DNA of 64,000 nt. Source: Chiloscyllium plagiosum. Lineage: Eukaryota. Positions 11,166 to 26,465 of the stretch are shown here, one piece after another. The stretch covers positions 148,954,554 to 149,018,553 of the forward strand of contig NC_057710.1 of assembly GCF_004010195.1 (NCBI RefSeq), given 5' to 3'. Under the pieces are notes generated by a model. That model saw only the letters and a program-made list of their open reading frames with translations, did not search any database and was not told the origin of the DNA. A program made the translations under genes and the position numbers. Within the stretch, counting starts at the first letter, position 1; each line of letters begins with the position of its first letter.

Positions 11166-12710
11166 ATTATTTTGCTTGAATTCCAAAGTCACTAGCCAAA
11201 GTAAAAAGATTCTGCAGATCGCGGGACACTTTTTACTTGTGTCTTATGGCAGAGGTGCTTTTCTCAGAACTTTCAACAAGTTGATTACTGAAGAACAACT
11301 AGAGAGAGCAGAATCAAAAACAAAAACCACAGTGTAGTCCTGCAGCTTCCAAAGCCAAATTGTCTCTGCCCAAAAACCCAGTCAGATCCAGTTAACTCTG
11401 TTTACTTTTTTTTAATATTCTTTGCGATTGGTTAGCCAGCTCCAGTCCTCCCTTGATTGATCAAGTCAACATCCAACCTACTACCAGTTCCTGATTCAGT
11501 ACAAATGTATCATCCACACTATAAATCTGCATTATTTTTCCAGACCAATTCCCAAAAGCAAACATTAGCCTTTTGTTCTCTTCTTTTTAAAAAAGCTGCT
11601 GCTTAAAGTTTCAATTTCAACTCATTTCCAGACCTAAAAGAAACACAGATGGTCTGAATACATTGAACCCAAGAATATTTTTTTTAAAAACAATATGGCA
11701 GCTCCAAAATGGAAGCGTTTGGAACAATTCTACAAATTCTCCAGAAAAGCAATATGTATGGATCACTCAATAGAGCAGTGAATCATTCAACTTCAAGCTT
11801 TCTTAAAGTCATAACTAACTAGAACCTTAACTGGAGGAGACATATAAAAACAATGGCTACAAGCAAAGGTCAGAAGCTGAGAATTCTGTGACAAATAACT
11901 TGTCAAAGTTTGTGCGAAGATTTGTAGCTCAGGTGCTCGTTGTTGTGGTTCTGTTCGCCGAGCTGGGAATGTGTGTTGCAGACGTTTTGTCCCCTGTCTA
12001 GGCGACATCCTCAGTGCTTGGGAGTCTCCTGTGAAGCGCTTCTGTGACCTTTCCTCCGGCATTTGTAGCGGTTTGAATCTGCCGCTTCCAGTTGTCAGTT
12101 CCAGCTGTCCGCTGCAGTGGCCAGTATATTGGGTCCAGGTCAATGTGCTTGTTGATTGAATCAGTGGATGAGTGCCATGCCTCTAGGAATTCCCTGGCTG
12201 TTCTCTGTTTGGCTTGTCCTATAACCTCAACACCAAGGAGAGGGAAGCACTAAAAGCACTAAGAAACGATAAGAACATAATCATACTACCAGCAGACAAA
12301 GGCAGAATGACGGTCATCCTGGACAAAGCAGAGTACATTCAGAAAGCGCAACTACTTGCAGATACCAACACCTACCAAAAGAGGGAGTTTGACCCCACCC
12401 CACCACTCACCAATAGGATAAACAACACACTGAGGAACCTACAAAATAAAACAGACAGATAACCAGATTTGACCTACAGAGAATGAAACCTGAAAGCAAC
12501 AACATGCCCAGATTCCATGGACTACCTAAAGTGCACAAACCAGACATCCTGCTCAGACCCATCGTATCACTACCAGGGACACCATCACACAAACTGACTA
12601 AAGAACTACAGCAGAAACTGAAACACCTGATCAGCAGATCCAGACACTATACAGTCAACACAGGAATTCTTGGACATCATCAGAAATATACACATAGACA
12701 AGGAAGAAAC

Positions 12711-13278
12711 NNNNNNNNNNNNNNNNNNNNNNNNNNNNNNNNNNNNNNNNNNNNNNNNNNNNNNNNNNNNNNNNNNNNNNNNNNNNNNNNNNNNNNNNNN
12801 NNNNNNNNNNNNNNNNNNNNNNNNNNNNNNNNNNNNNNNNNNNNNNNNNNNNNNNNNNNNNNNNNNNNNNNNNNNNNNNNNNNNNNNNNNNNNNNNNNNN
12901 NNNNNNNNNNNNNNNNNNNNNNNNNNNNNNNNNNNNNNNNNNNNNNNNNNNNNNNNNNNNNNNNNNNNNNNNNNNNNNNNNNNNNNNNNNNNNNNNNNNN
13001 NNNNNNNNNNNNNNNNNNNNNNNNNNNNNNNNNNNNNNNNNNNNNNNNNNNNNNNNNNNNNNNNNNNNNNNNNNNNNNNNNNNNNNNNNNNNNNNNNNNN
13101 NNNNNNNNNNNNNNNNNNNNNNNNNNNNNNNNNNNNNNNNNNNNNNNNNNNNNNNNNNNNNNNNNNNNNNNNNNNNNNNNNNNNNNNNNNNNNNNNNNNN
13201 NNNNNNNNNNNNNNNNNNNNNNNNNNNNNNNNNNNNNNNNNNNNNNNNNNNNNNNNNNNNNNNNNNNNNNNNNNNNNN
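12711..13278. other. Assembly gap (N run)
   Basis: Run of N. Confidence 1.
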
Positions 13279-13774
13279 TCTGAACTGACAGCCAGACTAC
13301 TACGACCACTAGGACTCATAACAGCACACAAACCAACAGCCACTCTCAGACAACAATTCACCAGGACAAAGGACCCGATACCCAGCATTAGCAAAACCAA
13401 CGTAGTATACAAAATCCCATGTAAGGACTACATAGGACAAACAGGAAGACAGCTAACGATCCGCATCCATGAACACCAACTAGCCACGAAATGACACGAC
13501 CAGCTATCCTTAGTAGCCACACACTCAGATGACAAGCAACATGAGTTCGACTGGGACAACACTATTATTATAGGACAAGCCAAACAGAGAAAGCCAAGGG
13601 AATTCCTAGAGGCATGGCACTCATCCACAGATTCAATCAATAAGCACATCGACCTGGACCCAATATACCGGCCACTGCAGCGGACAGCTGGAACGGGCAA
13701 CCGGAAGCGGCAGATTCAAACCACTACAAATGCCGAAGGAAAGATCACAGAAGCGCTTCACAGGAGACTCCCAA

Positions 13775-13814
13775 GCACTGAGGATGTCACCTAGACAGGG
13801 GACGAAACGTCTGC
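13775..13814 (+). ncRNA. Minimal hammerhead ribozyme motif in PLE pLTR
   Basis: GCA-CUGAGGA-U-GUCACCU(AGAC)AGGGGAC-GAAAC-GUC-UGC: stem I GCA/UGC, stem II, intact core. Confidence 0.75.
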
Positions 13815-14170
13815 AACACAAATTCCCAGCTCGGCGAACAGAACCACAATAATAACTTGTCAAAGCCTGTCCATCATCCCCAAGGCATACATCAGAAGCG
13901 TGAATGAATTCATCCCACCTGCCTAGGTTACGACTCACTGGATCGTAATTTGAACCCCGCTAATCTCAGAGTTGAAAGAAGATAGGCTAATCAAAAAGAA
14001 ATGTCCTCGGAGTATTGAGTTGTCATACACATAATTGCAAGGATATACTGATGTCCTTTTTTTTGTCTTTGGTAATACCCACATGTAAATAACACAAAGT
14101 TGTTCTTCAAAAACTGGCTAAGAAACAATAGTGCTGGTATGATTACATGTGGAGGTTTTCCTACCGTCTC

Positions 14171-17185: not shown

Positions 17186-17994
17186 GGTAACTGGCTTGCT
17201 TCAATTTTAAACTGTTGCAGCGAACAGCTTCTGCGTAGAGAACAACAGTACAACCTTCTATATCTTTCTGTGTGTCTACGCCTCTAACTTGTTTCCAGCC
17301 CCAAATTGCTCAGTTCACGAAGAACCCAGCCATGTTCACTTGTGACCAAGTCCTTGACTCCTCATTGTCTGCACATTGCAGGAATCCAGTCACAAAAAGT
17401 TCATAACAGGTACGTAATTTCTTGCTGTGAAATTATGCAGCCATCCCAACAAATTCACGGTTTTTAAACAATTAGTTGTCCTTGAAGACCACAGTTTTTA
17501 AATACACAAAAATAAAATGACTCTTCTTTGCACCTACATGAGTGTTGCCTCAAAACAAGCAGCATGACACCTTCCAGAGCAAACTAGCCTATTTGATTAG
17601 CACTATATCCATTCCTCTACAATGCTGTAGATTGCACCATCTACAAGATACCATGCAGAACTTGCCAAGATTCCCATGGCAGCACTTTTAAAAGCCCACA
17701 TCTATCACCTAGAGCAAGGACAGAAGCCATATGAACCGCCAACTACATGTTAGCCTCAGAGTGATGCAGCATTTTGATGGCATTTATGCAATGTCACTGC
17801 ATCAAACTAATTACTCTGTCCATCTCATCCTCTCTAAGCAACTGGTCAACATTAGCACCCCAGTTCTGCAGAATCACTTATGTAGCCAATGAGGATCAGA
17901 AAACAAATATTCAAACCTCCAACTTTTACTCCCATTAAAGGCAGTTCATAAATACAAGTTCAGATTATTGATGGAAGGCATGAAATAATCTTGG

Positions 17995-18114
17995 AGAAAG
18001 TGAATATTGCAGATCTTGGAGATCAGAGTCAATAAGTGTGGAGCTGGAAAAGCACAGCAGGTCAGGCAGCATTTGAGGAGGAGGAGGATTTTGGGCATAA
18101 GCCCTTCATCAGGG
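17995..18114 (-). mobile_element. Miniature PLE pLTR insertion
   Basis: Decayed hammerhead plus tail; TSD ATGAAATAATC(T/C)TGG at 17980-17994 and 18115-18129. Confidence 0.78.
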
Positions 18115-18171
18115 ATGAAATAATCCTGGGCAGGCACTATGATTATCCCAGGAGTGACTTTAAAAAAGTTA

Positions 18172-18215
18172 AACTTTCGAGGGATATGAATGCTTATATC
18201 TGTCTGTCATCAACT
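18172..18215 (+). other. Inverted intronic copy of part of MMAA coding exon 3
   Basis: 39/44 identity to the reverse complement of 26389-26432; reads LSRDMNAYI on the + strand. Confidence 0.85.
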
Positions 18216-19224
18216 CTGTACCGTGTAATACACTGAGCAACAGTCTCTCTCATTGCCCAGTAAACCAAAAATGCAATGAGAACACTGATTGACCTCCCAA
18301 GGGCCAAAACTGGGTCATGGGTAGGCTAGGCAACCCATCCAATGTTGCCTCCACTGTTCATAAAATTGCAGCAAAGGCAGTCAGGCAAGCAGGCCACAGG
18401 TAGTATGTCTCCCTAATTTATGGATTCACCTTCAGGTTTTCACATTCACTCGCAGTTCAAGATTACTTGTAATGTTCAAAGCTAACATGACAAACAATGC
18501 AGCTAAGACAAAATGCTCTATTTCCACTAGTAACAAAACAGGCATGTTTCTCTCTTCTAAATCTCTGCAATTGTTTCTGAGCTTCCAATTTTTTTTTATT
18601 GTTGGTTCTTATTTTAGCCAAATTTTGGAAACATATTTAAACAGGATATTAAATTGTTGCTGTTCATACATAATCAATAGCTGCGCCAGTAAGACCATTT
18701 TTGTCACTCTCCAAAGCTATGGCAAAATTTCAAACCAGAATTTCTTTACTTTTAATATTGTCACCAATAAACCCATCTGCACATCACCACTGCTCACAAA
18801 GAACAAGTAGTTTCCAATTAGGTTGAGTAAATGAAGTAAAGCAAGGATAAGACTGAATCTAAAGGTAAGAACTGTAAAATCAAAGCGTTGCTCAAACAGG
18901 AACCAATGTGTGCCAGTGAAAACACTGTTGATGGTTAAAACAAGACTTGGTAGGAGCTAGAACATGACCAGAAGGGCTCTGCACAGCCTCAAACTTACAT
19001 AAGGTACAACATGGAAAACCAGTCAGAACGGTATTGGAATAGTCAAGTCGAGAGGTAATAAATGCATGGATGAGAAAAAAAGTAGGGTGAATTTTTTCTA
19101 CTCTGGGTTGGTCATCTGCAGATGCAGATCTAAAGTACTCAATGAACCAGAGAAAATGCTACGAATTAGATGCCACTGCCTGAAAGCAAATTAAATATTA
19201 AATTTCAATACGGACTGAATTAAA

Positions 19225-26294: not shown

Positions 26295-26465
26295 CTACAG
26301 TCTCTACAAGAACTAGATCATATCCTGCCCCTTCACATAAAATAATAGCTTCATTTGTGGTTCTGGTTACTCCTCCCAACATTCCCGAAGTTGGTGATGG
26401 ACGGATATAAGCATTCATATCCCTTGAAAGTTCAGTCATCCTTGTTTTGTCACCTAAGAGTGATC
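26295..26465 (-). CDS. MMAA: MMAA coding exon 3
   Basis: ttcag|GA...GTA G|gtaag; [58 protein letters not shown]; 171 nt. Confidence 0.97.

Follow-up and report, generated by a model that had tools for sequence, protein, structure and literature searches.

The window, a stretch of 64,000 nucleotides, comes from the bamboo shark Chiloscyllium plagiosum. The host gene on the minus strand is MMAA, which encodes a vitamin B12 chaperone. The 58-residue peptide of the exon treated here was 100% identical to P0123, a protein named as C. plagiosum MMAA; with other shark proteins it shared 97-98% identity. Internal exons of the gene were located at 29494-29372, 26465-26295, 7926-7841 and 6270-6121. We take "exon 3" of shark MMAA to be the third coding exon, which corresponds to human exon 4. 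Within the following intron resides a short inverted copy of this exon, hereafter called the element.

26295-26465, minus strand: third coding exon of MMAA, 171 nt, in frame, with acceptor TTTCAG and donor GTAAGT; its peptide is that of P0123
7927-26294, minus strand: intron with the element, 18.4 kb, followed by exon 7926-7841
18172-18215, plus strand: the element, a 44-nt copy of part of the third coding exon (39/44)
26389-26432, minus strand: donor segment, nucleotides 34-77 of the 171-nt exon
26407-26409, minus strand: UAU codon for Tyr207 of P0123, whose counterpart in human MMAA (2www_A) is likewise a Tyr

The element reads as exon sense on the plus strand and is therefore antisense within the minus-strand pre-mRNA. 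It is situated 8.08 kb below the donor site of the 171-nt exon, and another 10 kb separate it from the following acceptor. An ungapped comparison of positions 18172-18215 with the reverse complement of 26389-26432 disclosed 39 identities in 44 positions, the longest run comprising 21 nt, by which the match reported in a first-pass annotation of this DNA was reproduced. The two copies are inverted, have sharp ends and are 8.17 kb (8,174 nt) apart, in agreement with the downstream position of ~8.2 kb given there. The 3.56-Gb genome was searched once with the exon and once with the element plus its flanks, and either query yielded only two matches, the MMAA exon and the element, a copy count that is a lower bound; the respective partner was found with E values of 2.3e-6 (exon as query) and 3.5e-6 (element plus flanks). 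The match is not due to chance. The flanks of the element gave no other matches in the genome search. The donor segment belongs to the coding sequence of the conserved GTPase core and specifies (E) and 14 further residues. Both splice sites of the exon are close to consensus and lie outside the segment and the paired stretch. Residue 207 of P0123 aligned with the Tyr of 2www_A, in line with the earlier statement that the UAU codon is equivalent to human Y207.

The junctions of the element were inspected for traces of its insertion.

18165-18177, no strand: 6-bp fold-back at the left junction, where the first 6 nt of the element recur in the flank in reverse-complemented form
17980-18129, no strand: short dispersed repeat with a 14/15 direct repeat of 15 nt at its edges, resembling a target-site duplication

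The element itself is not bordered by a target-site duplication, the longest word common to both flanks being 4 nt, and no poly-A was detected at its 3' end, while a run of six A is located 4 nt left of its 5' end. Homology does not extend rightward, and the leftward score was matched by 10% of random flanks. The left fold-back may represent a microhomology used for priming. It was kept as a weak scar only, since short hairpins near the insert gave P values of 0.04-0.20 over five settings when compared with 1500 unique sites; in a first hairpin test, one of 83 windows had reached the observed count. Clusters of short inverted repeats with arms of 6-10 bp also flank the element (18120-18154 and 18249-18284) and were borderline over background. 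The dispersed repeat, which ends 42 nt left of the element, is probably SINE-like and likely an insertion separate from it. Several other identities of the element were rejected. A remnant of a longer duplication was dismissed as there is no significant extension of homology past 44 nt, and a processed pseudogene or a member of a repeat family was ruled out by the genome matches being only two. An assembly artifact is unlikely, as the copy differs from the exon by 11% and the differences follow a CpG pattern. A structured RNA of its own was likewise discarded, the fold of the element having a z score of -0.58; Rfam returned two matches (E = 0.57 and 0.72), both below the gathering score and outside the element.

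The five differences between exon and element are all transitions, namely (exon/element) TCA/TCG, CGT/TGT, CCA/CTG with two adjacent changes, and CCA/TCA, and each of them gives an A·C mismatch in the minus-strand pre-mRNA, as had been noted before. Four of the five reside at CpG-capable sites, which make up only 10 of the 44 positions (P = 0.007, post hoc). When one CG decays on opposite strands in two copies, a CA/TG pair is what usually remains. The Arg and both Pro of the segment are invariant in 18 aligned proteins, and for this reason the three C>T changes were assigned to the element. On the exon side two As face C, each at the third position of its codon (TCA for Ser and CCA for Pro), which confirms that they are synonymous; they probably arose by G>A changes at a former TCG and a former CCG. 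Since G>A is the sole silent CpG decay for these codons, the coding constraint would have forced A·C at two of the five mismatched positions. The chance that the remaining three are all A·C and none is G·U is about 1 in 8. These ancestral states were deduced without an outgroup, and at the first site an A>G change in the element is an alternative. Thus, CpG decay under coding constraint may yield the all-A·C pattern, for which no ADAR design is needed, and the A·C bias, the main argument previously advanced for an editing element, is largely explained. Outside CpG sites a single change in 38 positions remained, corresponding to a divergence of 2.6% with a 95% interval of 0.07-14%, by which the age of the element is poorly bounded.

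All five changes break an inferred G-C pair, and neither a compensatory change nor a G·U wobble was found. The calculated energy of the duplex is -52.9 kcal/mol versus -78.2 kcal/mol for a perfect complement. In 3000 random versions, each with five transitions, the mean was -62.4 +/- 4.9 kcal/mol, and only 2.3% of them were as weak as the real duplex. With respect to the helix-keeping changes that characterize an editing complementary sequence (ECS), none of the five changes in this one genome keeps a pair. If the helix were under selection, the opposite of the observed weakening would be expected.

These data bear on the proposal that the antisense patch is a selected element, which guides recoding (e.g., of Tyr207 to Cys) or in-frame skipping of the exon and thereby tunes MMAA activity. 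We regard this as highly improbable. It gains some plausibility from the donor being coding sequence of the conserved GTPase core, from the 171-nt exon being in frame and from all five mismatches being A·C, a type favored by ADAR according to PMC8897444. However, the helix is weakened by each of the five changes without any compensation, the A of the Tyr207 codon faces U, not C, inside the uninterrupted 21-bp helix, and the strong splice sites are both outside the paired stretch. Moreover, Cys was present at the Tyr207 position in none of 23 aligned full-length or isoform proteins, which are gene models and as such cannot show editing, and four Chiloscyllium gene models (three C. punctatum isoforms and one of C. 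plagiosum) keep the 171-nt exon. The sole exception to Tyr among the aligned proteins is the Stegostoma MMAA (P0126), which has Phe at this position. We take Y207C of MMAA to be a cblA allele; a literature search listed no paper on MMAA or methylmalonic aciduria in which Y207C or Tyr207Cys appears. Some other shark MMAA isoform models (P0004, P0009, P0010 and P0011) skip an in-frame exon of the GTPase domain, which has 123 nt (Carcharodon, Scyliorhinus) or 150 nt (Scyliorhinus, Heterodontus).

To see the element against its local background, a self-comparison of 864 kb (the window plus 400 kb on each side) was performed, from which pairs with a third copy in the span were dropped. It revealed 48 two-copy pairs, 21 of which are at most 80 nt long. 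Twelve of these 21 short pairs have their copies within 10 kb, compared with 2.3% of random pairs; this count omits five longer pairs within 10 kb. After removal of one tandem-like pair, 11 local pairs including the element remained (32-68 nt, 79-100% identical, eight inverted and three direct). The spacing is below 1 kb in nine of them and 2.1 kb in another one, while the MMAA element is the farthest from its partner with 8.2 kb. By broad standards the element is a doublet, as it is short, present in two copies, non-tandem, local and sharp-ended. The ten other pairs (G000:C1:148554554-149418553), of which seven are inverted, have spacings of 125-2128 nt, and two of them (35 and 32 nt) are 100% identical. 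Four of the ten were also checked genome-wide: one was unique, one gave no match even to its local partner, one resembled transposon terminal repeats and one overlapped a dispersed repeat. Altogether the ten pairs contain 33 transitions, 11 of which are CpG-type, and 19 transversions. The A·C:G·U splits of the seven other inverted pairs are mixed, the most uneven being 1:5, whereas the element with 5:0 is the most one-sided. By rough extrapolation, doublets of this kind may number ~20,000 in the genome, a few hundred of them having a coding donor, assuming that half are genuine, that the region is typical and that the coding share is 1-2%. Half of the local density is still well above the 0.08-0.65 duplications per Mb of transposon DNA given by Pace, Sen, Batzer and Feschotte (2009; PMC2671141), although the methods differ. 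A similar copy was encountered in a DUOXA gene of the same genome, where an exon end including its GTAAGT donor is present as an inverted copy of 180 nt with 96.7% identity.

L087:4439-4616 and L087:6461-6640 (G000:C40): DUOXA copy pair, the copy lying ~1.8 kb downstream in gene direction

As this copy is younger, longer and closer to its source than the MMAA element, it is the better candidate for a real effect.

On the whole, the 44 nt are best understood as an inverted copy of the MMAA exon, which would have originated by a template switch during germline break repair or replication and has probably been decaying neutrally since. We assign a probability of about 0.72 to this reading. A broken 3' end would have been primed briefly on the nearby exon DNA, extended by a copy of ~44 nt and rejoined. 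Later on, CpG deamination would have hit each copy twice, giving CGT>TGT and CCG>CTG in the element and the silent changes TCG>TCA and CCG>CCA in the exon, while one further C>T change would have occurred in the element. Pairing in the pre-mRNA is predicted to be rare and without a selected effect. We favor a neutral origin because of the CpG-type decay, the lack of compensation, the background of local doublets and the published precedent of ACSBG2. There are also counterpoints: no other of the 11 pairs is spaced as widely, the 5-kb limit of Pace et al. is exceeded, the A·C split is the most one-sided among the inverted pairs, the background is impure, the net pairing energy is still favorable and the ancestral states lack an outgroup. 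Of the two readings offered by the first-pass annotation, the neutral templated insertion is thus supported by the same observations, whereas an editing or splicing element gained no support, the A·C bias to which the annotation appealed being largely accounted for by CpG decay.

The template might also have been RNA. A retroelement enzyme could have reverse-transcribed a fragment of MMAA mRNA or pre-mRNA, and a break in MMAA could have taken up the product. The donor is wholly exonic although exons are a small share of the gene, and retroelement remains are abundant in the window, both of which would suit such an event. Against it stands the element itself, at which no exon-exon junction, poly-A or target-site duplication was detected. 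A genome search, at its sensitivity, found no processed copy of the 171-nt MMAA exon elsewhere. Furthermore, it is hard to see why a copy derived from mRNA should have landed 8 kb from its source, and most of the neighboring doublets are even closer to their partners. An RNA template is therefore quite improbable, and a DNA template switch is retained as the likely source of the element.

We also estimated whether exon and element may pair in the pre-mRNA. Opening of the exon segment would cost 15-18 kcal/mol and that of the element ~9 kcal/mol, to which a crude loop penalty of 14 was added. As the net energy of about -12 to -15 kcal/mol, itself a crude estimate, stays favorable, the model suggests that pairing is thermodynamically possible. 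ADAR is influenced by the neighbors of the edited nucleotide, CAG being a favored context and CAA and CAU not being preferred. The contexts of the exon As opposite C are CAA and CAU, while the intron provides one A in the favored context.

18201, minus strand: intron A facing an exon C, CAG context, non-coding (T>C on the plus strand)

If the duplex forms, position 18201 is predicted to be the best editing site, since it has the CAG context, faces C and adjoins the 21-bp helix. With 44 nt, 89% identity and a distance of 8.2 kb in the same transcript, the element falls within the definition of a putative ECS used by Gabay et al. (2022; PMC8897444), which asks for a length of 30 nt or more, an identity of 70% or more and a spacing of up to 10 kb in the same transcript. 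By geometry only, it is a candidate ECS. Consequently, an element of the same accidental origin could form a duplex on some nascent transcripts and be edited by ADAR incidentally, without adaptive value, mainly at the intron A 18201 and the two silent exon As and perhaps in traces at nearby codons. Besides its conformity with that definition, this notion draws on the uninterrupted 21-bp helix with its favorable net energy and on human ASNS, a precedent for an edited exon-intron duplex described in PMC8897444. In addition, the element is transcribed 10 kb ahead of the intron acceptor, so that the exon should still be attached when the element emerges. However, 17 other inverted pairs of this pre-mRNA score as high as or higher than the exon-element pair, the two exon As lie in contexts that are not preferred, and the Alu decay term at 8174 nt is only ~0.0001% above baseline, a value transferred by analogy from the human Alu average. 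Incidental editing is for these reasons unlikely, yet less so than the other alternatives. The same intron harbors a 286-nt inverted pair with 94% identity (window 11940-12224 and 13568-13852), whose copies are 1.3 kb apart and which adjoins an assembly gap at 12711-13278. This pair is far more likely to be an ADAR substrate than the 44-nt element. The literature search, outside of which most subscription journals lie, found no paper on MMAA and A-to-I editing. Among the matches listed for shark ADAR editing, none concerned MMAA by its title or the start of its abstract. The readable supplementary tables of PMC8897444 had no MMAA row, a blank that carries no information, since one of them had no ASNS row either.

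If neutral, the MMAA element adds a further case to a known class. It then conveys a caution, as CpG decay in constrained codons can leave an exon and its inverted copy with A·C mismatches only, a pattern that does not point to ADAR design. Should editing be found, a guide that originated as a repair accident would act over 8 kb, approximately tenfold the reported decay length of Alu editing, and the origin of recoding sites could then be tested on the similar copies that shark genes contain. The boldest version, by which a repair scar was co-opted in bamboo sharks as an 8-kb guide that recodes the MMAA GTPase core (e.g., Tyr207 to Cys) and the frequent inverted exon copies within introns of sharks give rise to new ADAR recoding sites, would be a long shot.

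Among known systems, the ECSs of the GluA2 Q/R type form imperfect helices that are conserved by selection and in which one particular A is edited. The MMAA element resembles them in being a downstream intronic sequence complementary to an exon but differs by its uncompensated CpG-type decay and the spacing of 8 kb. In human ASNS, according to PMC8897444, a 50-bp duplex of exon and intron is conserved in most primates, and a single G-to-A change in Homininae created an A:C mismatch and brought editing at an intron A and nearby exon sites. That duplex has one mismatch in 50 bp and measured editing, whereas the predicted MMAA duplex has five mismatches in 44 bp. Editing of human Alus decays over a length scale of ~800 nt according to PMC4066801, and the MMAA spacing of 8.2 kb is, by analogy, far past this scale.

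The closest relatives are the repair-mediated duplications of PMC2671141, which arise via capture of proximal DNA; in humans, 824 such cases have their donor within 5 kb. One of them is the inverted copy of exon 7 of ACSBG2 in its own intron, for which no coding constraint was found. The authors also refer to the "doublets" of Thomas et al. Like these duplications, the MMAA element is found at exactly one other genomic place and has no poly-A/T tail. That screen started at 50 bp, and its confident class is confined to donors on the same chromosome, within 5 kb and more than 50 bp away. The MMAA element is shorter (44 nt), and with its donor 8,174 nt away it would come under the unclassified "distant" group of these authors. 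It further lies outside a transposon, so that the empty site is not readable from a consensus, and it is an internal exon fragment without splice sites; the genomes analyzed by these authors included no sharks. Regarding microhomology, filler DNA or a small deletion at the junctions, this site shows the 6-bp left fold-back and the hairpin values reported above. As 44 nt and 8.2 kb miss the cut-offs of Pace et al., we filed the element under the broader group of short two-copy templated duplications. By analogy, it appears to work like a repair-mediated duplication without being a strict member of that class.
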